Shown here: positions 5,553 to 58,597 of the stretch, in pieces
Position numbering within the stretch: the first letter of the stretch is position 1
Layout: each line of letters opens with the position of its first letter
Assembly: GCA_017469265.1 (NCBI GenBank)
Contig: JAFUGS010000020.1
Span: 87,808 to 151,807, forward strand
From: Clostridia bacterium
GTDB taxonomy: Bacteria > Bacillota > Clostridia > Christensenellales > Aristaeellaceae
Reading direction: 5' to 3'
DNA length: 64,000 bases
The notes under the pieces: generated by a model
Database searches by the model: none
What the model saw: only the letters and a program-made list of their open reading frames with translations
Told to the model about the DNA's origin: nothing
Translations under genes and position numbers: made by a program

Positions 5553-6095
5553 TTACTTCCCGAAATACCGCTTCAGCAGGCCCTCAAAGCCCTTGCCATG
5601 ACGGGCTTCGTCGCGGCCAATTTCGTGGACAATGTCATGGATGGCGTCCAGGTTCAGCGCCTTGGCCTTCTTGGCCAGATCCGCGCGGCCCTGGGTGGCG
5701 CCATACTCGGCATCCGCCCGCAACTCCAGGTTCTTCTTGGTGCTGTCGGTAACCACTTCACCCAGCAGCTCCGCGAAATGCGCGGCATGCCAGGCTTCTT
5801 CCATGGCGGCCTTTTCAAAGAAGGCGCCGACTTCCGGATAACCCTCGCGGATGGCCACGCGGCTCATGGCCAGATACATACCGACCTCAGAGCACTCGCC
5901 ATTGAACATTTCCCGCAGGCCGTTCTTAATCTCTTCCGGCGCATCGCTGGCCACGCCGACCACGTGCTCGGCGGCCCAGACCTTGTCGGACTCCTGCTTC
6001 AGAAACTTGCTGGCCGGCGCCTTGCAGACCGGGCACTTTTCCGGCGGCTCATTTCCTTCGTAAACATAACCACAGACACTGCATACCCACTTCAT
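5553..6095 (-). CDS. rbr: Reverse rubrerythrin (N-terminal rubredoxin domain plus ferritin-like diiron domain)
   Basis: Starts MKWVCSVCGYVY...CPVCKA, followed by diiron motifs GECSE, EEAWH, DEARH. SD GGAGG precedes the ATG at 6095. Confidence 0.92.
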   Translation of the reverse strand: MKWVCSVCGYVYEGNEPPEKCPVCKAPASKFLKQESDKVWAAEHVVGVASDAPEEIKNGLREMFNGECSEVGMYLAMSRVAIREGYPEVGAFFEKAAMEEAWHAAHFAELLGEVVTDSTKKNLELRADAEYGATQGRADLAKKAKALNLDAIHDIVHEIGRDEARHGKGFEGLLKRYFGK

Positions 6096-6175
6096 ATCGC
6101 ATACACCTCCAGAATTTGTCGTAAAGGTTTTCCTCACAGCCCGGATTATACCAGAGCGCGGAAGGAAAAGCAACC

Positions 6176-7282
6176 TCAATCGCTGAAATTATTGTCGAAA
6201 TTGATGTCGGCCTTATATCCGGGCAGATACTCCGCGATATGCCCCAGCAGATCCTCACAAAGCGCTTTCCGGTCCACCTGAAAGTCGGTCATGACATCGA
6301 TGGTCATGGTTTTCGCTTCATCATCGATGTAGATGGCGTGGGTTCCCAGGACGCCCTGATGTTCCATGGCCGTCTCGTGGATGGATTTGCGCAGGTCATT
6401 GTGGTTGCTGTCGATGGCATAGATGCCCACGGTCAGAATCACGTGGTACTGCTGCATCACGGCCTCGGATATTCTGCGCGTCAGCCTGTGAATCTGATCC
6501 GCGGACAGATCCGCCGGCACCTCAATATGTACGGATCCAATGGCGTATTCCGGGCCATAATCATGCAGGATCAGGTCATACGCTCCAAGTACGTTCTCGA
6601 ATCCGCAGACCGTTTCCCGGATCGCCTTGGACACCTCGCTGTCCGGCCGGTTTCCGATGACAGTGGAAATGGATTCGGACAGCATCTCCCAGCCGGATTT
6701 CACGATGAACAGGGAGAGCACAGCGCCAATCCATCCGTCCACCGTCACGTGGAAAAACCAGGTAATGGCGATGCCCACCAGCGTGGACGCGGACAGGATT
6801 GCGTCAAAGCTGGCATCAGAGCCGGAAGCGATCAATGCCTCGGACTGGTATTTCTGGCCCTGTGCCTTGACGTACCGGCCCAGGATCAGCTTCACGACCA
6901 CGGCCACCGCCACAATGATGACGCTGGCCGCCGAGTACTCCGGCATCTCCGGCGTGAGAATTTTCTTGACCGATTCCACCAGCGCGGTCACGCCGGCAAA
7001 GAGTACAATACCGGCCACGATGATGGCGCTGAAATACTCAATCCGGCCATGCCCGAATGGATGTTTCTCGTCCGGCTTTTTCTTGGCCAGACGGATGCCC
7101 ACAATGGTCACCACGGAGGAGACCGCGTCCGTCAGGTTGTTCACCGCGTCCAGCATGATGGCGATAGATCCTGAAATAAAGCCAACCAGCGCCTTGAACG
7201 CGCTCAAAAGGACATTTGTGATCACGCCGATAACGCTGGTCCGCGTTATGGCCTGCTCTCTGCTCACGGAATCCGTCATCAT
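6176..7282 (-). CDS. Cation diffusion facilitator (CDF) family transporter
   Basis: DAVNNLTD, HPFGHGRIEY, C-terminal ZT_dimer-like domain (YDLILHDYGP...SVHIEV). Start chosen from SD GGAGG. Confidence 0.92.
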   Translation of the reverse strand: MMTDSVSREQAITRTSVIGVITNVLLSAFKALVGFISGSIAIMLDAVNNLTDAVSSVVTIVGIRLAKKKPDEKHPFGHGRIEYFSAIIVAGIVLFAGVTALVESVKKILTPEMPEYSAASVIIVAVAVVVKLILGRYVKAQGQKYQSEALIASGSDASFDAILSASTLVGIAITWFFHVTVDGWIGAVLSLFIVKSGWEMLSESISTVIGNRPDSEVSKAIRETVCGFENVLGAYDLILHDYGPEYAIGSVHIEVPADLSADQIHRLTRRISEAVMQQYHVILTVGIYAIDSNHNDLRKSIHETAMEHQGVLGTHAIYIDDEAKTMTIDVMTDFQVDRKALCEDLLGHIAEYLPGYKADINFDNNFSD

Positions 7283-7354
7283 CCCGTCCTCCCTTTTCTG
7301 GATGCTTTTCTTCCCTGTTTTCAAAAAACACCATTCATGAATGCCGTGGGAAAA

Positions 7355-7951
7355 TTACGACTGCTTCCCGTCCGGATCCCCCTGCTGATGGATCTTCCTT
7401 TTCCAGCACTGGTGACACATGGCCAGGTAGCTGTCGTTTCCGCCCAGCATCACCTGTCCGCCGCTGGTCACGATCCGCCCCGCATGATCGATTCGGGCAT
7501 TCACCGTCGCTTTCCGGCCGCACTCACAGATGGTTTTGATTTCGGTAATGGAATCAGCCAGCTCCATCAGGCGCTGGGAGCCGGGAAAAAAATGGGTCAG
7601 AAAATCGGTCCGCAGTCCGAAACACAGCACGGGCAGATCCTCCTCATCCACGAGGAAACGCAGTTCATCAATCTGGGCGGGCGTAAAGAACTGTGCCTCA
7701 TCCGCGATGATGACATCCCGCGGACCGCGAAGGTGGTAGGCTTCCAGGATGCTGTTCTCCGGAGTGATAACCTCGGCCTGGCTCCGGAGCCCAATCCGGC
7801 TTTGAATGACATCCGCACCGTCACGGGTATCCACGCTGGGCTTGATCAGCCAGACGGACATGCCCCGTTCCTCATAATTGAATTTGGTAATCAGCGCCTG
7901 GGCGGATTTGGAAGATCCCATTACGCCGTATTTAAAGTAAAGCTTTGCCAT
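7355..7951 (-). CDS. tdk: Thymidine kinase
   Basis: MAKLYFKYGVMGSSKS, DEAQF, FGLRTDF, zinc motifs CECG and CHQC. Confidence 0.95.
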   Translation of the reverse strand: MAKLYFKYGVMGSSKSAQALITKFNYEERGMSVWLIKPSVDTRDGADVIQSRIGLRSQAEVITPENSILEAYHLRGPRDVIIADEAQFFTPAQIDELRFLVDEEDLPVLCFGLRTDFLTHFFPGSQRLMELADSITEIKTICECGRKATVNARIDHAGRIVTSGGQVMLGGNDSYLAMCHQCWKRKIHQQGDPDGKQS

Positions 7952-7970
7952 GGTCTGCTTTCTCCTGTCA

Positions 7971-8591
7971 TCAGCTGTTTTCCAGGTGGGCCCGCACCCG
8001 CTGCACCACCATTTCCAGCGCCACCTGGTTTTCTCCGCCCTCGGGGATAATGACATCCGCCTGGCGTTTGCTGGGCTCCACAAACTGTTCATGCATGGGC
8101 TTCACCGTGGTCAGATACTGATTGATGACGCTGTCCAGGCTGCGGCCGCGATCCTGCACGTCCCGCTGAATCCGGCGCAGAATGCGGACATCCGCGTCCG
8201 TATCCACGAAGATTTTAATGTCCATTTCCCGGCAGAGCCGCGGATCCGCGTAAATCAGGATACCTTCCACGATGATGACACGGGTCGGTTCGATGCGCAC
8301 CGTCTGGTCAATCCGGTCATGGATGGAATAATCATAGATCGGGCAGTCAATGGATTCTCCGGCTTTCAGCCGTTTCAGATCCTCGATCATCCGATCCGTA
8401 TCGAAAGCGTCCGGGTGATCGTAGTTCAGCAGGCACCGCTCCTCAAAGGGCATGTGGTGATGCTCCTTGTAGTAGTTATCGTGGTGCACGACAGAAACAT
8501 TTCCGCCAAAGCGCTCCACCAGGCGGTTCGTGATGGTGGTTTTCCCGCTGCCTGTTCCTCCGGCAATCCCGATGACCATGATTTCATTCAT
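7971..8591 (-). CDS. udk: Uridine kinase
   Basis: GIAGGTGSGKTT, NYDHPDAFD, IIVEGIL, RRIQRDVQDRGR. Confidence 0.96.
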   Translation of the reverse strand: MNEIMVIGIAGGTGSGKTTITNRLVERFGGNVSVVHHDNYYKEHHHMPFEERCLLNYDHPDAFDTDRMIEDLKRLKAGESIDCPIYDYSIHDRIDQTVRIEPTRVIIVEGILIYADPRLCREMDIKIFVDTDADVRILRRIQRDVQDRGRSLDSVINQYLTTVKPMHEQFVEPSKRQADVIIPEGGENQVALEMVVQRVRAHLENS

Positions 8592-49537: not shown

Positions 49538-49566
49538 TTCACAAGCGCTCAAATCTGTGGTATACT
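49538..49566 (+). promoter_or_regulatory. Sigma-70 promoter for the maf-mre operon
   Basis: TTCACA-17 nt-TATACT with extended -10 TG. Confidence 0.65.
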
Positions 49567-49599
49567 GTTCGGGTATCCTTTTTGGGAGGTGCTTTTGTC

Positions 49600-50169
49600 G
49601 TGCCCGTTTCCCTGGTTCTGGCCTCCTCCTCGCCCCGCCGCCAGGAGCTTCTGACCCTGGCCCGGATCCCTTACGAGGTGGACGCGCCGGAGGTGGATGA
49701 ATCCTGTGACCTGCCGATCGCGGAGGCCGTGGCCGAGCTGAGCCGGCGCAAGGCTTCCGCCGCGCTTTCGCTGCATCCGGGCCGCTTTGTTCTGGCCGCG
49801 GACACCCTCGTCGCCCTGGATGGGGAAAAGCTGGGCAAGCCCGCCTCCGAGGCGGAAGCCTGCGCCATGCTGCGCCGTCTGTCCGGCCGGACCCATACGG
49901 TCTGCACCGGGGTTACGGTGGTGGATCCCCAGGGCATCCTCCGCACGGAAGTGGATACCTCCCTTGTCACCTTCGACCCCATGCGGGAGGAGGAAATCCA
50001 GGCCTATGTCGCCACCGGGGAGCCCATGGACAAAGCCGGCGCCTACGCGGTGCAGGGCCAGACCGCCCTGTGGGTCCGCCGCCTGGAAGGCAGTCCTTCC
50101 GGCGTCATGGGGCTTCCGCTGGACCTGGTCCGGCGGCTGCTGGAACAAAGCGGTTATTCCTTTTTCTGA
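49600..50169 (+). CDS. maf: Maf family nucleotide pyrophosphatase
   Basis: GTG start after SD GGGAGG. LVLASSSPRRQELL, AADT, GKP, HTVCTG, DKAGAYAVQG. Confidence 0.93.
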   Translation: MPVSLVLASSSPRRQELLTLARIPYEVDAPEVDESCDLPIAEAVAELSRRKASAALSLHPGRFVLAADTLVALDGEKLGKPASEAEACAMLRRLSGRTHTVCTGVTVVDPQGILRTEVDTSLVTFDPMREEEIQAYVATGEPMDKAGAYAVQGQTALWVRRLEGSPSGVMGLPLDLVRRLLEQSGYSFF

Positions 50170-50202
50170 AACGCATTCTGAACGGTAGAAAGGAAACAAC
50201 GC

Positions 50203-51234
50203 ATGCCTTTTGCGGCTCCTGATATTGGTATCGATCTGGGCACCTCCAACACCTGCGTCTACGTGCGCGGCCGGGGCATCGTGGTGAACGAGCCCACCCT
50301 GGTGGCGGTGGAGCGGGAAAGCCGGCACACCGTGAAAGCGGTGGGCGATGAGGCCCGCTTTCTCTACGGCCGCAGCCCCGATCAGCTCATGACCATCTCC
50401 CCCCTGCGCAACGGCCAGGTTTCGGATTTTGACATGACCGAGCTGCTGCTGAAGTATTTTATCCGGAAAGCCATCGGCATCAGCTACCTGAACAAGCCCC
50501 GGGCCATCGTTTCCGTCCCCTGCGGGCTGGATGACGTCAACCGGAAGGCCCTGACCTCTGCCGTCCGCTACGCCGGCGCCCGGCACGTTTTTCTGATCGA
50601 AAAGCCTTTTGCCGGCGCCATCGGCACCGGTCTGCCGGTCTATGATCCGGTGGGCAACATGGTGGTGGACATCGGCGCCGGGACAACGGACATCGCCGTC
50701 ATTTCCCTGGGCGGCCTGGTGGTTTCCCAGAGCGTTCCCATCGGTGGGGACCGGATGGATGAAGCGCTGATGAATTACCTCAAACGGGAATGCAACATCA
50801 TCGTCGGCCGGCAGACAGCGGAAAAGGTCAAGAAGGATCTGGCCACCGCCATGCCCCTGGAGGAACCCCGTTCCATCCTGGTTCGCGGGATCAACCAGCT
50901 GAACACCTCCGCCGGGACGATCTCCTTCACCTCGGACCAAGCCTACGCCGCTGTCCGGGAGCCCTGCGCCGGTATTATCAAGGCCATCCGCCAGGTACTG
51001 GAAAAAACGCCGCCGGAGCTCTGCGCCGACATCATGCGCGGCGGCATCCATCTGACCGGCTGCGGCAGCATGCTTTTCGCCCTGGATCAGTATATTTCTG
51101 AAAAGCTGGATATTCCCGTGCTGCTGGCCCGGGATCCCGGGGACTGCTGCATCCTGGGCATCGGATACCTGACCGAGAACATCCAGCTGGTTACGCCCCA
51201 GGATAAGCGTTCCGTTCCCGTCGCGCAGGGATAA
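50203..51234 (+). CDS. mreB: Rod shape-determining actin homologue MreB (divergent nucleotide pocket)
   Basis: IDLGTSNT, NEPTLVA, DIGAGTTDIAVISLGG, GGDRMDEA, AEKVK, TPPELCADI. Located directly upstream of mreC. Confidence 0.93.
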   Translation: MPFAAPDIGIDLGTSNTCVYVRGRGIVVNEPTLVAVERESRHTVKAVGDEARFLYGRSPDQLMTISPLRNGQVSDFDMTELLLKYFIRKAIGISYLNKPRAIVSVPCGLDDVNRKALTSAVRYAGARHVFLIEKPFAGAIGTGLPVYDPVGNMVVDIGAGTTDIAVISLGGLVVSQSVPIGGDRMDEALMNYLKRECNIIVGRQTAEKVKKDLATAMPLEEPRSILVRGINQLNTSAGTISFTSDQAYAAVREPCAGIIKAIRQVLEKTPPELCADIMRGGIHLTGCGSMLFALDQYISEKLDIPVLLARDPGDCCILGIGYLTENIQLVTPQDKRSVPVAQG

Positions 51235-51335
51235 TGCCTGCCGTCGTTTCTCGTACGCGTTCACGCAGAGGGACCGGGTCCGCCCGGACTGTCCGTCCCG
51301 CACTGCCGGAAACACCTGAAAGGAGGTGAACCGCC

Positions 51336-52844
51336 ATGGCCCGTTTCAAGCTCCGCCCCCGGGAAAAAAGTAAGGATTCCCGACCCACCGTATCCGATGA
51401 TTTTATCTATGACGAGCCCCGGGCGGCGGATGCCTCCATCGCTTCAGACACGCCGGAGGAAGCGCTGAAAAAGCTCCGGGGGGGCAATCCCCCTCCGAAG
51501 GATCCCGCGTCCGCGGAACCGGAGACGGAGGAAACCCCTTCCGCGAAATCCCCAAAATCCTTTGACGCTTTCCGGAAAAAGACCCGGACCGCCTCTCCTG
51601 TCCAGCTGGATGACGATCTGCAGCCCATTCCCTCCCACCGCCGCGGGGGCGGGCATCCCCGGCTCCGCGTCTTCTTCCTGGTGCTGATCACCTTTGTGCT
51701 GCTCCTGTTTGTAGGGGCCTACGTCTACCACCGGATCATTCCCGCCGCCCCCTATCTGGGGGATCCGGAGATCATGGTGGGCGAGGCGGTTTCCCCCGTA
51801 CAGGAATTTTTCTCTTCCCTGACGGAAACCGTGGCGGGGCTCTTCCGCTCCTATAAGCTGCGCTCCAACATCGAGGCGGAATACAACGCCCTTCGGGCGG
51901 AAAATGAGCAGCTGGTATATAAAGCCATGCTGGCGGACGAACTGCAGCAGACGCTCTCCCAATATGAGGACCTCAGCGATGAGATTGCAGCCAACGCGAA
52001 CATGCAGCCCATTGTCTGCACGGTCATCGGAAAGTCCGATTCCAATTATTTTTCCACCTTTACCATCAACAAGGGCTCGGATGACGGGTTGGAGGATTAC
52101 ATGGCCGTCACCATCTCCGGCTCCCTCGTGGGCTATACGGAGAGCGTCCAGCCCTCCTCCGCCACCGTACGGACCATCATCGACTCCGAGGCTTCCATCG
52201 CCGCGCTGATTTCCTCCTCCCGGGATCAGGGCACCGTCCGCGGTACCCTGGGTATCGACGGCACCGCCATGTGCCGCATGTATTACCTGCCGGATGACAA
52301 TCTTCCCCGTCCCGGGGACACGGTGGTCACAAGCGGTGTCGGCATGTCCTTCCCCAAGGGGATCCCCATCGGCACCGTCCGGGAAAGCACCCGCGGGATG
52401 GACTCCAACAAGCAGTACATCGTGCTGGAGCCCCTGGCGGATTTCCAGCATCTGGAGTACGTTATCGTTCTTCGCTATAAGCCCGTGGCGGAGGCCATAC
52501 AGGGCCGGGAAAACGGCCGGACCAACGTGGAGCTGGTACCGCTGGAAAGCGCCCGGCCCTCGCCCGAGGTTCCGCAGATCGCCTCTTCCCTCTTCGAGTC
52601 TCAGACGACCCCGGATCCGAACGCGACGCCCACTCCCTCCCCGGAACCTACGGAGACGCCGGAACCCACGCCGGAGCCCACGCCGATTCCCACCCCCACG
52701 CCGGAAATCCACAACCTGGAATATCAGGTGGTAAATCCCAGGGGAGAACCGACGCCCACGCCTACGCCTTCCCCGGTGCCGACGCCCACGCCCTATATCA
52801 CCCCGGACCCGGATACCATGACCTTCGAGGAGGACGACGGATGA
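51336..52844 (+). CDS. mreC: Rod shape-determining protein MreC with long N- and C-terminal extensions
   Basis: TM helix, coiled coil (ALRAENEQL), FTINKGSDDG, LVG, DTVVTSGVGMSFPKGIPIGTV, LEPLADFQHLEYVIV. 502 aa. Confidence 0.92.
   Translation: MARFKLRPREKSKDSRPTVSDDFIYDEPRAADASIASDTPEEALKKLRGGNPPPKDPASAEPETEETPSAKSPKSFDAFRKKTRTASPVQLDDDLQPIPSHRRGGGHPRLRVFFLVLITFVLLLFVGAYVYHRIIPAAPYLGDPEIMVGEAVSPVQEFFSSLTETVAGLFRSYKLRSNIEAEYNALRAENEQLVYKAMLADELQQTLSQYEDLSDEIAANANMQPIVCTVIGKSDSNYFSTFTINKGSDDGLEDYMAVTISGSLVGYTESVQPSSATVRTIIDSEASIAALISSSRDQGTVRGTLGIDGTAMCRMYYLPDDNLPRPGDTVVTSGVGMSFPKGIPIGTVRESTRGMDSNKQYIVLEPLADFQHLEYVIVLRYKPVAEAIQGRENGRTNVELVPLESARPSPEVPQIASSLFESQTTPDPNATPTPSPEPTETPEPTPEPTPIPTPTPEIHNLEYQVVNPRGEPTPTPTPSPVPTPTPYITPDPDTMTFEEDDG
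52606..52815 (+). repeat. Pro/Thr-rich low-complexity repeat inside mreC
   Basis: Encodes TPDPNATPTPSPEPTETPEPTPEPTPIPTPTP and EPTPTPTPSPVPTPTPYITPDP. Confidence 0.9.
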
Positions 52845-53455
52845 AAAAGCTGCTTCGCCGTCTCTTTCAACCGGGTTCTTTCCGGAAATATTTTGTGTTT
52901 GTGCTGATGCTGCCCCTGGGTTTTCTCTGCCAGGTCTGCGTCATGCCCTATGTGCGCCCCTTCGGCGTCACCCCTAATCTGCTTTATGTGCATATCGCCA
53001 TCATCACCGTTGCCTACGGGCGGCTCCAGGCCTTCTGGGCCGGGCTGGTCTACGGCTTCCTGATGGAAATCCGCCTGCCCTCCGTGCCTTTTGTGCAGCT
53101 GGCCATCTATCCCCTTTCCAGCCTGTTCGTCTCCTTTGCCTTCGCGGACAAATCCCTCCGCCGGCTGCAGATGGACCGGGCCCTGAAGCGGAAATCCCGG
53201 GAGATGCCTCCCCTGCTGCGGACGGTGCTCTGCGCCATGGTAAATGTGCTGGTCTACGAAATCATCAATGTTGTTTACATCTATCTGGGGGGTACCAGCC
53301 TGAGCCCGCAGCATTTTATCCGGGCACTGCTGGATGTGATCGAAACCGGCGCGCTGGCCTTTTTCGTGGCCCTGGTGCTGCGTCCGGTCATCCTGGGCCG
53401 GCAGAAGCCGGAACCGGTGCTGAAAAATCAGCCCATCGTCTTTGGAAAAAAGTAA
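52841..53455 (+). CDS. mreD: Rod shape-determining protein MreD-like membrane protein
   Basis: Hydrophobic, with PNLLYVHIAIITVAYG...AGLVYGFLME. ATGA-coupled to mreC and followed by the PBP gene. Confidence 0.75.
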   Translation: MKKLLRRLFQPGSFRKYFVFVLMLPLGFLCQVCVMPYVRPFGVTPNLLYVHIAIITVAYGRLQAFWAGLVYGFLMEIRLPSVPFVQLAIYPLSSLFVSFAFADKSLRRLQMDRALKRKSREMPPLLRTVLCAMVNVLVYEIINVVYIYLGGTSLSPQHFIRALLDVIETGALAFFVALVLRPVILGRQKPEPVLKNQPIVFGKK

Positions 53456-53488
53456 CCCCCGCGGGAACCATTCTCTCAGGAAAGGAGC

Positions 53489-55993
53489 ATGCGCATGGAG
53501 AAGAAAAAGAAGATTCGTCCCGGGCTGGGCCGGTATATCGGCTTTCTCGTGGCGCTCTTTGCCATGTTTGTTTATCTGGTTTCCGGCCTGGTAAACCTGC
53601 AGCTGCGCCAGGAGGACTATTATCAGGAGAAGGCGGAATCCACCCGCACCAAGACCATCGCCCTCCGGGGCAAGCGCGGCAACATCGTCTCCTCCGACTC
53701 GGTGATCCTGGCGGAGGATGAGCTGATCTACAATGTTACCTTTTACAAGGACGCCTCCACCGTTTCCGCCGCGTCCTACAGGGCCTATACCGCCTCCATC
53801 ATCGATACCATCGGCATCGTGGAGAAAAACGGCGGCGAAATGGCCATCGATTTCGTCATCCGGCGGGACGAGGATACCGGGGACTGGGTCTTTAACTTTG
53901 GTTCCGGTGTGTCTGACTCGGTGCTGGCCACCCGGGAAAACCAGTGGCGCTCCAATAACTATCTGACCAACCTGAACCGTTACGAAACGCCGGCCCAGTG
54001 TATCGACCGGCTGAAAACCCGCTATCAGATCACCGACGACATCGATGAGGAAACCATGCTTAAAATCATGGCCATCTACTCGGAGATGCAGATGAACATC
54101 TTTAACTCCCAGCCCATCGTCATCGCCAAGGATGTCAAATACGAAACCGTCATCGAGATTGAAACCCGGTCCATGATGCTGCCGGGCATGGAGATCGAGA
54201 TCGGCACCAAGCGGGTTTATCCCCGGTCCACGCTGGCTTCCCAGATCATCGGGTACACCGGCGCCATTCCCTCCCGGGCCACCTGGCTGACCCTGCAGGC
54301 CAAGGGATATTCCTACAATGACACCATCGGCCGGGACGGCATTGAGTCCTCCATGGAGGACTGGCTTACGCAGAATTCCTCCCTTCGGAAGGGAACCAGG
54401 GTCGTGGAACGGGATCAGATGTCCAAGGTGGTCCGGGAGCTGAGCTACACGGAGCCTCAGGACGGCAACAATGTCAAGCTGACCCTGAACGCGGCCTACC
54501 AGGTGGTGGCCGAGCGGGCCATCGCCAGCAATGTGTCCACCACCCGGGATCTGCAGGAAAAATACCTGGCTTCCGATTCCTGGCTGGAGGCCAACAAGAC
54601 GGATATCCACAACCGGAACTGGGCCACCTATCCCCTGGATCTGGCGGAGCATGGCTGCCTCATTGTGCTGGACATGCAGTGCCGCGTGCTGGCCATGGCC
54701 AATTATCCCACCTATGACCTGAACGCCCTGGTGGCCGGCGGCAAGGACGCCATGGCCATCCTGGGGGACAGCCGGAATCTGCTGCTGAACTACGGCATCC
54801 ACGCCCGGGGAACCCCCGGCTCCATTTTCAAGATGGTTACCGGTACCGGCGCCCTCACCGAGGGGGAGCTGCTGCCCACGGAGCGGATCTCCGACGGCGG
54901 GTACTATACAAAGTACAACGCGGATAAATCCACCGCGCCGAAGTGCTGGATCAACCAGAATTACATCTACAAGCACGCCAACCAGACCATCGTGGACGGG
55001 CTGACCAACTCCTGCAATTACTTTTTCTACGAGCTGGGCAGCCGCCTGGGTGAGGAAAGGCTGTACCGGTACGCCTCTCTCTACGGGCTCACCTCCAAAA
55101 CCGGCATCGACCTTCCCGGCGAGGTACGCTCCGTGGTCGGCAGCCAGAACACGCTGTATGATCCTTCCAAGCCCATGAACGAAGCCAACCAGGATACCTC
55201 CCTGCCCATCATCGTCTTTAACTCCATCAAGACGCACCTGAAGAACTGCGGCGCTTCCCGGAACATTGAGTACGATGACGAGCGTCTCTCCGTCTGCGCC
55301 AAGCGCCTGATGGACATGGCCGTCAACTACAACGAATCCGAATGGCTGGACAACATGCGCACCATCCTGATGGAGGAGCTGAACATGACCAAGGAGATGG
55401 TCTACCTCCAGTCCGTCATCGGGGATACCTACAATTACATGAACGATATTAAATGGGGCGGCGGCCAGACCATTCTGACCGGCATCGGCCAGTCCGTCAC
55501 CGTGCTGACCCCCATCGCGGTCGCCCGGTATGTGTGTACGGTTGCCAATGGCGGCTATCTGTACAACGTGTCCCTGATCGACTCCATCTCCTCCCCGGAG
55601 GGCGAAATTCTCTCCCAGCGGGAGCCTACCCTGATCCATCGGCTGGATAAGGCGGATGAATATCTGCCCCTCATCCGGGAAGGGATGAAGGGCGTGGTTG
55701 ACGAGTCCGGTACCGCCGGTAAGTATTTCCGCCGCTGGCCCTACACGGATCAGATTGCCGCGAAAACCGGAACCGCGCAGGTAACGAAGATCGACCTGGA
55801 AAACAACTCCTGGTTCGTCTGTTTCGCCCCCTTCGAAAACCCGGAGATCGCCATCGCCTGTTTCATTCCCAACGGGTACTCCGGTTCGGAAGCGTCCAAG
55901 GCGCCCCGGGATTTCATCGAATGGTACATGGAGCAGAAGACCCTGCGCTCGGCGGAGGATATCCTCCCTGTACCCAACAGCCTGACCCCCTGA
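53489..55993 (+). CDS. mrdA: Class B penicillin-binding protein (PBP2/MrdA-type transpeptidase)
   Basis: N-terminal TM, RGKRGNI, GRDGIE, and transpeptidase motifs SIFK (SxxK), SCN (SxN), KTG. 834 aa. Confidence 0.9.
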   Translation: MRMEKKKKIRPGLGRYIGFLVALFAMFVYLVSGLVNLQLRQEDYYQEKAESTRTKTIALRGKRGNIVSSDSVILAEDELIYNVTFYKDASTVSAASYRAYTASIIDTIGIVEKNGGEMAIDFVIRRDEDTGDWVFNFGSGVSDSVLATRENQWRSNNYLTNLNRYETPAQCIDRLKTRYQITDDIDEETMLKIMAIYSEMQMNIFNSQPIVIAKDVKYETVIEIETRSMMLPGMEIEIGTKRVYPRSTLASQIIGYTGAIPSRATWLTLQAKGYSYNDTIGRDGIESSMEDWLTQNSSLRKGTRVVERDQMSKVVRELSYTEPQDGNNVKLTLNAAYQVVAERAIASNVSTTRDLQEKYLASDSWLEANKTDIHNRNWATYPLDLAEHGCLIVLDMQCRVLAMANYPTYDLNALVAGGKDAMAILGDSRNLLLNYGIHARGTPGSIFKMVTGTGALTEGELLPTERISDGGYYTKYNADKSTAPKCWINQNYIYKHANQTIVDGLTNSCNYFFYELGSRLGEERLYRYASLYGLTSKTGIDLPGEVRSVVGSQNTLYDPSKPMNEANQDTSLPIIVFNSIKTHLKNCGASRNIEYDDERLSVCAKRLMDMAVNYNESEWLDNMRTILMEELNMTKEMVYLQSVIGDTYNYMNDIKWGGGQTILTGIGQSVTVLTPIAVARYVCTVANGGYLYNVSLIDSISSPEGEILSQREPTLIHRLDKADEYLPLIREGMKGVVDESGTAGKYFRRWPYTDQIAAKTGTAQVTKIDLENNSWFVCFAPFENPEIAIACFIPNGYSGSEASKAPRDFIEWYMEQKTLRSAEDILPVPNSLTP

Positions 55994-56010
55994 GAAAGGA
56001 GGACGCGGTT

Positions 56011-56829
56011 TTGTCAAAAACATATCTGGTCGCCTCCGGCAAAGGGGGCGTCGGAAAATCGACCGTGACGGCCTGTCTGGCCGTCCTGCTGGCCCGGAAG
56101 GGGCGCCGCGTGGTTCTGATGGACGCGGACATCGGCCTTCGGTCCCAGGATCTGCTGCTGGGGCTGGAAAGCTCCGTGGTCTATGACCTGGTGGATGTGG
56201 CCCAGGGCCGCTGCCTGCTGAGTCAGGCGCTGCTTCCCTGCCCGGGAACGCCCAACCTGGAGCTGCTGCCCGCGGCGCAGTTTGCCCGCTGCAGGGATCT
56301 GGATCCGCGGAAGCTGAAAAAGATGCTCTCTCTCCTGCGGAAGGAACATGATTTCATTTTGATCGACTGTCCCGCCGGACTGGAGCGCGGCCTTCGGAAC
56401 GCTTTGAACGCCGGCATGCGCAATGAGACCCTGATTCTCGTCACGCCGGATGATCTCTGTATCCGCGGCGCGGAACGGGTTGCTGCCCTGATCGCGGAAA
56501 AAAACCTTCCCCGCCCGCAGCTGCTGGTTAACAGACTGGATCAGGATCGGGTTTTCACCCATGAGATGTACAGCGCCGCAACCATCTCCCAGGTGCTGGA
56601 TCTGCCGCTTCTGGGAGAGGTGCCGGAGGATTCCGCCGTCTATACGGCTCAGCTGCGACACCGGCTGACGATCGATTACGACTGCGAAGCCCGGAATGCC
56701 CTTCAGCGGATCGCCGCCCGACTGGATGGGGAGAATCCGCCTTTGCCGGATTACGGAAGGCGGAAAACCTCCTTTTTCCGGAAGCACTTTCCGCCGGCTC
56801 TGAAGGAGGTGCCTGATGAACGGAACTAA
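56011..56829 (+). CDS. minD: MinD-family ATPase (divergent)
   Basis: TTG start after SD AAAGGAGG. SGKGGVGKST, DADIGLR, VVYDLVDV, DCPAG, and a C-terminal amphipathic SFFRKHF. Confidence 0.85.
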   Translation: MSKTYLVASGKGGVGKSTVTACLAVLLARKGRRVVLMDADIGLRSQDLLLGLESSVVYDLVDVAQGRCLLSQALLPCPGTPNLELLPAAQFARCRDLDPRKLKKMLSLLRKEHDFILIDCPAGLERGLRNALNAGMRNETLILVTPDDLCIRGAERVAALIAEKNLPRPQLLVNRLDQDRVFTHEMYSAATISQVLDLPLLGEVPEDSAVYTAQLRHRLTIDYDCEARNALQRIAARLDGENPPLPDYGRRKTSFFRKHFPPALKEVPDERN

Positions 56830-58045
56830 TGTGGAGCGCCGGGCCTATCGGGCCCACACGGATCTGGTGCTGATCTTTCTGGTGGGCGTCATGTCCCTCA
56901 TGGGTATCGTTGCCGTCTGTGTCGCCACCTACACGCCGGATTCCAGCCCGGATATCTCCTTCCTGAATCACGTGGTGGAATCCTCCTACACCATGCGCCA
57001 GTGCCTTTTTGTGCTGGTGGCGCCGCTGGTGGTGGGTTTTATCATGGTGATTCCCTATGATCTGATCTTCCGCCGGGCGGAGCTGATCTACTGGGCCATG
57101 GTGGTGCTGCTGGCGGTGGTTACCGTCTTCAACCGGGCCCAGGGCGTGAAGGCCTGGCTGGACATTATCTGGGGATATACGATTCAGCCTTCGGAGTTCG
57201 CCAAGCTGTCCATGATTCTGATCCTGGCAAAGCAGCTGTCCCGGTCCAACCGGCCTATGGCCACCTTCCGCTCCTTTTCCCAGGTTATGCTCACAGTCAT
57301 GATTCCCGCGGTTATCATTCTTGCGGAGGGCGAAACCGGTTCCATGCTGGTGATCGTGTTTCTCACCGCCATCATGATGTACTTCTCCGGCTGCAGCCTG
57401 AAGATGCTGGGCATTCTGGCGGGCATCGCCGTGCTGGGCATCCTGTCCATCTACGGCCTGATGGTGGCCACCGGTTCCACGGACTACCGCCTGGCCCGGA
57501 TCTCCGGCTTCCTGAACCCGGAGCTCTATTCCTCCTCGGACTCCTATCAGATTCTCCAGTCCCAGATGGCCATCGGCTCCGGCGGCGTCACCGGCATCGG
57601 CATGTTTGTGGACGGTTCCATGAGCCAGCTGAACTACGTGCCCGCGGACTGGACGGACTTTATCTATGCCACCATCGGGGAAGCCTGGGGCTTTGCGGGC
57701 TGTATGACCGTTCTGGTGATGTATCTGCTGATCCTGCTGCGCATGCTGTACCTGGCCTATTACACCCGGGACAAATTCGGCCGGCTGATCATCTGCGGCG
57801 TGCTGGGGATGCTGCTGTTCCATGTGTTTGAGAACATCGCCATGACCCTGGGCCTGATGCCCATCACTGGCATTCCCCTGCCCTTCCTGTCCTACGGCGG
57901 CTCCAACATGGTTACCAACATGGGCGGCATCGGCCTGGTGCTGAACGTGACCCGGAACCGTTCCCTGTCCGACGCGGTCAGCACCCCCCAGACCTTTTAC
58001 AATCCCTATCGTTTTTCCACCCGATTCAAAACACGTCCCTGGTAA
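56816..58045 (+). CDS. rodA: SEDS glycosyltransferase RodA
   Basis: IQPSEFAK, AIGSGG, TDFIYATIGE, GLMPITGIPLPFLSYGGS. Confidence 0.92.
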   Translation: MNGTNVERRAYRAHTDLVLIFLVGVMSLMGIVAVCVATYTPDSSPDISFLNHVVESSYTMRQCLFVLVAPLVVGFIMVIPYDLIFRRAELIYWAMVVLLAVVTVFNRAQGVKAWLDIIWGYTIQPSEFAKLSMILILAKQLSRSNRPMATFRSFSQVMLTVMIPAVIILAEGETGSMLVIVFLTAIMMYFSGCSLKMLGILAGIAVLGILSIYGLMVATGSTDYRLARISGFLNPELYSSSDSYQILQSQMAIGSGGVTGIGMFVDGSMSQLNYVPADWTDFIYATIGEAWGFAGCMTVLVMYLLILLRMLYLAYYTRDKFGRLIICGVLGMLLFHVFENIAMTLGLMPITGIPLPFLSYGGSNMVTNMGGIGLVLNVTRNRSLSDAVSTPQTFYNPYRFSTRFKTRPW

Positions 58046-58054
58046 AAACGCACG

Positions 58055-58096
58055 AAAAAACAGGAACCGCGTCCTTCAGACCGGTTCCTGTTTTTG
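58055..58096. terminator. Bidirectional terminator between rodA and the vanZ-like gene
   Basis: AAAAACAGGAACCG-12 nt-CGGTTCCTGTTTTT. Confidence 0.85.
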
Positions 58097-58597
58097 ATGT
58101 TTTCTTATTTTCGATTGCCGCCGGAGCAGCGCCAGGACCCCCACCGTCAGCAGAATCCCCGTCAGCACGCCGGCGCTGTCGATGGTCACATCCCGCCATT
58201 GACCGCTCCGTCCGTCCACCAGCAGCTGATGGCTTTCGTCCAGCGCCGCGTACCCCGTAGCCGCGGCCCAGGCCGTCAGAGAACATATTCTCTTTCTGCC
58301 CAGCCAGCTCTCCAGGCACAGCCGCAGGCTGGCTCCCAGCAGGGCAAATTCCGTAAAATGCGCGCATTTCCGTACCACGTGCTGAATCCGGTCATAAAAG
58401 GCCTTTCGGGTCCTCGGCTCCATGCGCCGCCAGTCCGGACGGACCATGCTGGCCACCCGCTCAGCGACCCTGCCGCTGGTGATGTCCGATTTTTCCGCCG
58501 GCTCCGTGGAAAAAAGAAAGATCATGAGCATGACCCCCAGCACCAGCATGGTTGTCAGCGCTCTTCCCCAGGCGCTCTGCAAGCCCCTTCCCCGCAT
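58076..58597 (-). CDS. VanZ family membrane protein
   Basis: MIFLFS...S...SG, RKCAHFTEFALLG, YAALDESHQLLVDGRSGQWRDVTIDSAG. Confidence 0.9.
   Translation of the reverse strand: MRGRGLQSAWGRALTTMLVLGVMLMIFLFSTEPAEKSDITSGRVAERVASMVRPDWRRMEPRTRKAFYDRIQHVVRKCAHFTEFALLGASLRLCLESWLGRKRICSLTAWAAATGYAALDESHQLLVDGRSGQWRDVTIDSAGVLTGILLTVGVLALLRRQSKIRKHQKQEPV

Follow-up and report, generated by a model that had tools for sequence, protein, structure and literature searches.

What does a MinD protein do in a bacterium that has neither MinC nor MinE? The question is raised by a wall-synthesis operon in a stretch of 64,000 nucleotides (nt) from a Clostridia bacterium of the family Aristaeellaceae (GenBank assembly GCA_017469265.1, contig JAFUGS010000020.1, positions 87,808 to 151,807 of the forward strand), which is referred to here, at its full length, as the window. 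Between positions 49582 and 58045 of the window, gene calls together with Pfam and NCBIfam profiles identify seven genes in one orientation: maf, mreB, mreC, mreD, pbp2, minD, and rodA. The MRE/MIN cluster considered ancestral in Firmicutes consists of radC, maf, mreB, mreC, mreD, pbpB5, minC, minD, minE, and rodA (Garcia et al. 2021, PMC8136486). By comparison, the window shares the order and orientation of maf, mreBCD, pbp2, minD, and rodA, whereas radC, minC, and minE are missing from the cluster. With seven of the ten genes in ancestral order, the locus was classified as a reduced derivative of the MRE/MIN cluster and not as a full member. A preliminary description of this DNA had considered the whole operon to be a co-evolved, rewired elongasome. 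The analysis reported here favors another history, which is considered probable though far from assured: the ancestral cluster was reduced in steps, leaving a MinD whose role would depend on neither of its former partners, MinC and MinE.

The loss of the Min partners is visible already in the spacing of the genes. From maf to rodA, the successive intervals are 33, 101, −4 (an ATGA overlap), 33, 17, and −14 nt, and because these gaps are so short there is no space in the operon for radC, minC, or minE, as had been proposed. Neither the MinC_C nor the MinE model of Pfam has a match in the window's genome (91.75% complete), in 24 other genomes of its genus, or in 121 genomes of its family, which represent 55 genera. 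Hidden Markov models (HMMs) tuned to the order, trained on 57 MinC and 42 MinE sequences taken from the order and from outgroups, returned nothing at E ≤ 10 in a six-frame search of the window's genome, and no MinE remnants were detected in the longer minD-rodA gaps of family members. Absences of this kind in metagenome-assembled genomes (MAGs) hold for the genomes searched. Relocation of minC, minE, or radC with conventional function had been put forward as an outcome that would speak against the rewired elongasome; for minC and minE it is ruled out by the Pfam searches of genome, genus, and family and by the order-tuned six-frame search, so that these two genes were lost and not moved. Conversely, radC was moved. 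The only copy in the window's genome lies far from the mre cluster, on another contig (C18:57670-58005, locus L001). Its absence from the cluster is not peculiar to this family, since radC was found inside the cluster at none of the loci examined, whether of the family or of order-level relatives. The displaced radC has about 60 extra N-terminal residues and is located upstream of genes for a DUF218-like membrane protein and an rsmG-like methyltransferase.

The remaining minD gene (56011-56829, plus strand) encodes 272 residues. It starts with TTG at 56011, 8 nt downstream of AGGAGG, and the same 272-residue product is found in public records. The protein reaches 223.2 bits on the MinD model TIGR01968 (cut-off 212.9), a cut-off attained in 50 of the 121 family genomes, and the canonical MinDs of the order score 380-406 bits. 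Residues 2-245 align with Escherichia coli MinD (3Q9L) at E = 1.3e-37. In this alignment K11, K16, D38, and D40 are retained, with SGKGGVGKS and DADIG present; the window MinD thus shares with the E. coli protein the deviant Walker A, the Walker B segment DxPAG, and a basic, putatively amphipathic C-terminus. The differences are N45S, S148L, D152G, D154E, and a tail of about 12 residues after the candidate membrane helix. It has been reported that MinC and MinE share a binding site on MinD made up of S148, D154, and I159, that N45 mediates the stimulation of MinD by MinE, and that D152A cannot be stimulated by MinE (PMC6803595). The window MinD does not conform to this partner site: helix 7 has Leu, Glu, and Leu at positions 148, 154, and 159, and Ser and Gly occupy positions 45 and 152. 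As judged from its sequence, the protein is altered at residues for partner binding and for the MinE response and unaltered at the basal catalytic residues. The preliminary description had regarded both ATPases of the operon as degenerate at hydrolysis-related residues; this applies to MreB, where Lys134 replaces the catalytic Glu (see below), but not to MinD, in which K11, K16, D38, and D40 are all present.

The same changes can be followed through the family. In a comparison of 36 family MinDs with 55 from other families and outgroups, nearly all of the latter from loci with MinC or MinE, the 55 non-family proteins keep TSGKGGVGKTT, N45, D152, D154, and the partner-site residues invariant or nearly so. 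Among the family MinDs, position 45 is Ser in 19 of 36, position 148 is Val, Leu, or Ile in 34, and position 154 is Glu in 29, while D152 is replaced by Gly in only three. Asp is present at position 146 in 34 of the 36; K11 is missing in four and D40 likewise in four. Wherever MinC or MinE is present, D154 is invariant in the aligned MinDs. It is replaced in all three groups in which MinD occurs alone, as loss of the partners predicts: by Glu in the window's family (f1), by Thr, Cys, or Leu in family f25, and by Ser or Asn in family f15. The C-terminal segment RRKTSFFRKHF of the window MinD is basic and aromatic, resembles known membrane helices, and is a candidate targeting helix, with similar tails in most family members. 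The approximately 12 residues past it (56788-56826) carry the motif PxxLKEV.

A second departure from the conventional machinery concerns MreB (50203-51234, plus strand; PF06723, 370 bits). The protein aligns at 313 bits with Geobacillus MreB (7ZPT) over residues 5-330, and the segments DLGT, DIGAGTT, and LTGCGS are present. Its Lys134 (codon 50602-50604) aligns with the Glu that precedes a Pro in the MreBs of Geobacillus (7ZPT) and Caulobacter (4CZE). In CcMreB this residue, E140, is the catalytic Glu; it places the attacking water and makes contact with A22/MP265 (PMC4051119). Of the catalytic motif E...T-X-[D/E] (CcMreB E140, T167, and E169), the window MreB has Lys in place of Glu and keeps T-T-D. 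Glu is found at this position in none of the 35 family operon MreBs, where Lys is the commonest residue and Gln, His, Ala, Thr, and Ser also occur, and in each of the 30 outgroup copies whose loci carry MinC. A second MreB paralogue of the window's genome (C29:158-1129, minus strand, locus L108; PF06723, 359 bits) reads LLDKN at the catalytic place, so that, on sequence, the canonical motif appears to be missing from the MreBs of this organism. In five further family genomes that are near-complete, each in one to three contigs, the second MreB has Arg in four cases and DEP in one. In a Monoglobaceae MAG (JBGVEN010000015.1, locus L090), the cluster is likewise eroded: maf-mreB-mreC-pbp2-minD runs straight into a methylglyoxal-synthase-like gene, and minC, minE, and rodA are absent; the MreB there reads IEKS at the catalytic position and may represent an independent replacement of Glu by Lys.

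The distribution of these features was examined in 161 genomes of the order, with MinD-like proteins counted at E ≤ 1e-30. MinC is found in 36 genomes, MinE in 87, and MinD-like proteins in 128. MinD without MinC is therefore common in the order, several families having only MinD and MinE; the MinD-only state is found in f1, f25, f15, and part of f8. In family loci with enough flank the order is maf-mreB-mreC-(mreD)-pbp2-minD-rodA; in other families of the order this place is occupied by pbp2-minC-minD-minE-rodA. Family f25 has maf-mreB-mreC-pbp2-minD-rodA without minC or minE, in the same order as the window, and is sister to f1 in a tree of PBP2 and RodA with a support of 91 in the Shimodaira-Hasegawa-like approximate likelihood ratio test (SH-aLRT). 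It retains the MreB Glu (AEEL, AEEP, or ADEP) as well as N45 and D152 of MinD. In f38 (IEKP) and f3 (IETP), the MreB Glu is missing though MinC, MinD, and MinE are present. That loss of the MreB Glu and loss of Min strictly accompany each other is ruled out by f25, f38, and f3, and the independent events are too few for statistics.

The claim of a co-evolved, rewired elongasome can now be divided. The loss of minC and minE, the change in MinD helix 7, and the loss of the MreB Glu all stand; their union in a single package is not supported, as the features differ in age and spread, which can be seen in f25, f38, and f3 and in the narrow distributions of the MreC tail and D152G. Inside f1 they do occur together, and outside it they separate, so that the independent distribution across taxa that would speak against a package is largely what was found. 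The insert in PBP2, once counted as a member of the package, is ruled out by the order-wide length of this protein.

The history that we consider probable would begin with the departure of radC from the cluster, probably early, as it is in no order locus examined. A deletion of minC and minE in place, probably a single one that preceded the separation of f1 and f25, would have followed and left pbp2-minD-rodA. On the f1 stem, the catalytic Glu of MreB and residues S148 and D154 of MinD helix 7 would have been lost, and N45 in about half of f1. Later changes, within subclades, would comprise the long cytoplasmic tail of MreC, the short MinD tail after the candidate membrane helix, and the replacement of D152 by Gly. 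The wall-building part (MreC, MreD, PBP2, and RodA) looks conventional and catalytically intact as far as its sequences indicate. By analogy with Spiroplasma MreB3 and ScMreB5 E134A, an MreB with K134 would be expected to bind ATP and polymerize, to hydrolyze slowly, and to form stable filaments. MinD is most likely still an ATP-binding, membrane-binding dimer with a role that would need neither MinC nor MinE. Candidate roles are DivIVA-linked polar or septal positioning, positioning of the chromosome or origin, and recruitment of a new partner; DivIVA is present in the window's genome. This role may be a weak one, because several genera have lost the gene.

The proteins of the wall-building part deserve closer description, since some had been included among the altered components. 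The mreC gene (51336-52844, plus strand) encodes 502 residues and matches PF04085 at 137 bits over residues 230-379. It has a cytoplasmic N-terminal tail of about 107 residues, the first hydrophobic span beginning at residue 107, and a C-terminal tail rich in Pro and Thr. MreC measures 355-516 residues throughout f1 as compared to 279-338 in other families; the N-terminal tail of about 100 residues is confined to the window's subclade. Within this tail (51336-51660, residues 1-108), the motifs DDFIY, SDTPEEALKKL, and LDDDLQPI are conserved in the subclade. These motifs and the PxxLKEV tail of MinD are conserved in the same subclade (the window and loci L040-L045, L121, and L124, with L127 in addition for MinD). 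From their sequences, the two tails are a possible interaction pair; they occur in one clade and so represent a single phylogenetic event. In a genome of the same genus (G144, contig C1:3183100-3196000, locus L124), two adjacent MreC-like matches (5756-7045 and 7341-8507 of that locus) are situated between mreD and mreB, an arrangement suggestive of a tandem duplication of mreC in this congener.

The mreD candidate (52841-53455, plus strand) overlaps mreC by 4 nt and encodes a hydrophobic protein of 204 residues. It has no Pfam match and remains under the cut-off of TIGR03426 (31.1 bits, E = 1.9e-7, cut-off 34.85), and it was assigned by position and hydrophobicity; the place of mreD between mreC and pbp2 is conserved. 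The pbp2 (mrdA) gene (53489-55993, plus strand) encodes a class B transpeptidase of 834 residues with a PBP_dimer pedestal domain (PF03717) and a Transpeptidase domain (PF00905). Its score of 356 bits on TIGR03423 is below the cut-off of 455, probably because of order-wide inserts. PBP2 measures 787-894 residues in every family of the order, including those that bear MinCDE. The rodA gene (56816-58045, plus strand), whose start overlaps the end of minD by 14 nt, encodes a glycosyltransferase of the shape, elongation, division, and sporulation (SEDS) type (PF01098, 257 bits); NF037961 gives 188 bits (cut-off 150) and TIGR02210 gives 305 bits (cut-off 337), and QPSEFAK is present. The wall-building catalytic motifs had been described as intact, and indeed SIFK, SCN, and KTG of PBP2 and TDF of RodA can be read in the translations.

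Whether the leftover MinD is still of use to the cell can be judged from its rate of change. Measured against RodA and PBP2, MinD diverges 1.18-fold in f1 and 0.64-fold in MinC-bearing families, that is, about 1.8 times faster in f1, and a protein that is the most conserved of the cluster in MinC-bearing families is the least conserved in f1. For close pairs, the ratio of nonsynonymous to synonymous substitution rates (dN/dS) of MinD lies at 0.05-0.17 in most genera; the window's genus has values of 0.26-0.36, whereas RodA gives 0.13-0.19 and PBP2 0.06-0.10 there. Walker A and switch I are the most conserved MinD segments in the family, and most C-termini keep the basic, putatively amphipathic motif. 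Approximately 100 of the 121 family genomes have an uninterrupted minD frame, at a mean pairwise MinD identity of 39%. In four family genera minD has been cleanly deleted, pbp2 adjoining rodA, and a fifth has a remnant. On this sequence evidence, the family MinD would be functional under relaxed constraint, most relaxed in the window's genus. The retention of minD after loss of both partners, a central element of the preliminary description, is borne out by the absence of MinC and MinE from all 121 family genomes and by the purifying selection on minD.

The faster relative evolution, the disappearance of K11 from four lineages and of D40 from as many, the clean deletions with the remnant in a fifth genus, and the highest dN/dS in the window's own genus would all be expected if MinD were a decaying relic, without function and heading to loss. 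This is considered very improbable, as the frame persists in most genomes despite the low mean identity, dN/dS is well under 1 everywhere, the nucleotide-binding motifs are the best-conserved segments, and a C-terminus resembling a membrane helix is retained. A MinD that continues to place the division site through unrelated proteins, which would have replaced MinC and perhaps MinE at the remodeled helix 7, is a further alternative. There is precedent in plant plastids, where ARC3 replaced MinC. The conservation of the new helix-7 residues is in its favor, as are the presence of DivIVA in the genome and the excess of MinD over MinC across the order, with many families having MinD and MinE only, so that MinD seems often to be used there independently of MinC. 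A candidate gene was not identified, however, and gene calls and inspection of the gaps reveal nothing new inside the operon; such a replacement is judged distinctly improbable.

The rewired elongasome itself would make of MinD a new part of the Rod complex, a membrane-bound ATP switch which, with a non-hydrolyzing MreB and an extended MreC, sets the sites of RodA-PBP2 activity. It can draw on the fixed place of minD, which lies between pbp2 and rodA both throughout the family and in f25, on its overlap with rodA in the window, on the conserved derived residues of helix 7, on the joint appearance of the MreC tail and the KEV-like MinD tail in the window's subclade, and on the adjacency of maf, mreB, and minD in small-genome relatives even without mreC, pbp2, and rodA. 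Nevertheless, the features are of different ages and are found apart, as f25, f38, f3, and the length of PBP2 throughout the order show; the arrangement of the genes was handed down from the ancestral cluster (PMC8136486), and position by itself is therefore uninformative; the two tails belong to one clade and one event; four family genera with pbp2-rodA do without MinD; and other families keep MinD and MinE without mre or rodA neighbors. We regard this alternative as unlikely. Likewise doubtful, to a similar degree, is an undescribed coupling of wall elongation to cell geometry, operating without MinC and MinE, in which MinD would use a new helix-7 partner (a Rod protein or an FtsZ regulator) together with the Glu-less MreB. 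The cytoplasmic tail of MreC would be the obvious Rod-complex candidate for helix 7, in the window's subclade only.

Stepwise reduction with a surviving MinD remains the preferred explanation, and several observations weigh against it. Helix 7 is in the most conserved fifth of the 15-residue windows within family MinDs, and its conserved derived residues fit a new binding partner as well as they fit inherited substitutions. The arrangement pbp2-minD-rodA is found in all 66 family loci examined (from 38 family genomes and the seven nearest public MAGs, some genomes being fetched twice), and minD is never displaced; this fixed place, with the overlap with rodA in the window, would suit a functional link with the wall synthases. 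In addition, the sisterhood of f1 and f25 rests on a two-gene tree whose support of 91 is under the 95 mark.

MinD is understood almost entirely as a carrier of MinC, either driven by MinE or anchored by DivIVA/MinJ. Here a family of gut and rumen Clostridia, sampled in 55 genera, and its sister family keep MinD without either partner and under purifying selection. Because MinD outnumbers MinC more than threefold across the order and the partnerless MinD is under selection, a MinC-independent role of MinD is indicated, and this lineage would be a natural place to seek it. In the accessible part of the survey of the MRE/MIN cluster, loss of MinC, MinD, MinE, and MreB is reported as patchy and mainly in cocci, and a MinD-only state in a family with a full Rod system is not described (PMC8136486). 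The MinCD/MinJ/DivIVA system of Bacillus subtilis resembles the window in having a MinD without MinE and min genes downstream of mreBCD, and DivIVA is encoded in the window's genome as well. In B. subtilis, however, MinD recruits MinC, whereas the window's genome has no MinC and the MinC-contact residues S148 and D154 are changed. Archaeal MinD homologues without partners offer another likeness, in that a MinD-type ATPase is kept without MinC and MinE for a use other than MinC delivery; in Haloferax, MinD oscillates and positions the motility machinery (bioRxiv 10.1101/2020.04.03.021790). These homologues form a separate sister group, whereas the window MinD descends from bacterial MinD at the ancestral locus.

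As regards MreB, Spiroplasma MreB3 and ScMreB5 E134A polymerize, but with slow phosphate release or more stable filaments (PMC9597168, PMC9195046). The catalytic motif is present in 95.8% of non-Spiroplasma MreBs, and deviant MreBs therefore exist (PMC9597168). Spiroplasma MreB3 has Asp for Glu plus Lys for T167, whereas the window MreB has Lys for Glu and keeps T-T-D; furthermore, Spiroplasma is wall-less and the window MreB is accompanied by a complete PBP2/RodA set. The loss of the MreB Glu throughout the family, in most genomes in both copies and beside complete PBP2/RodA, constitutes a natural experiment on whether rod growth can proceed without ATP hydrolysis by MreB. Both points, on MinD and on MreB, are variations on known machinery, and no new kind of system is needed to account for them. 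For annotation, the name "septum site-determining protein MinD" is probably misleading in these genomes.

Elsewhere in the order, minD-minE pairs without MinC are found in f4, f24, f26, and f27 (L177, L180, L181, L195, and others), often without mre, pbp2, or rodA neighbors. A MinDE pair without MinC implies either an effector yet to be recognized or a use unrelated to division, and the occurrence of MinD beside MinE without mre, pbp2, or rodA neighbors in several families implies that MinD can be retained independently of the elongasome. Families with small genomes of 0.8-2 Mb (f10, f15, f16, f18, f22, f31, f34, and f37) have a compact maf-mreB-minD(-minE) cluster without mreC, pbp2, and rodA (L168-L173, L176, L183, L185, and L186). 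The MreB-like protein of these families is about 30% identical to that of the window, has Ser, Ala, or Asn in place of Glu, and often lacks the AAAIG segment.

The first gene of the window's cluster is maf (49582-50169, plus strand), which encodes a nucleotide pyrophosphatase (PF02545, 197 bits; TIGR00172, 167 bits, cut-off 117) and adjoins mreB in 30 of the 31 family loci that extend far enough upstream. The description of seven co-oriented genes between a promoter and a terminator, with overlaps at mreC/mreD and minD/rodA, agrees with the gene calls, the profiles, and the RNA fold. Upstream of maf, at 49538-49566 on the plus strand, there is a sigma-70-like promoter candidate (TTCACA-17-TATACT with a TG extension, 10 of 12 positions), which is a consensus match only, four such sites occurring in the region against 2.8 expected by chance. 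At the other end, a terminator hairpin (58056-58095, no strand assigned) lies between the convergent rodA and vanZ genes. Its fold of −25.7 kcal/mol (z = −5.67) includes a 10-bp core, and none of 200 shuffles was equally stable. This hairpin 3′ of rodA was overlooked by the terminator scan because of its long loop and was found by reading of the sequence and RNA folding. With an A-run before it and a U-run after it, the terminator looks bidirectional, as far as these flanks indicate. The gene that converges on rodA and shares the hairpin encodes a VanZ-family membrane protein (58076-58597, minus strand; PF04892, 75 bits), and beyond it the minus strand carries dnaJ and dnaK.

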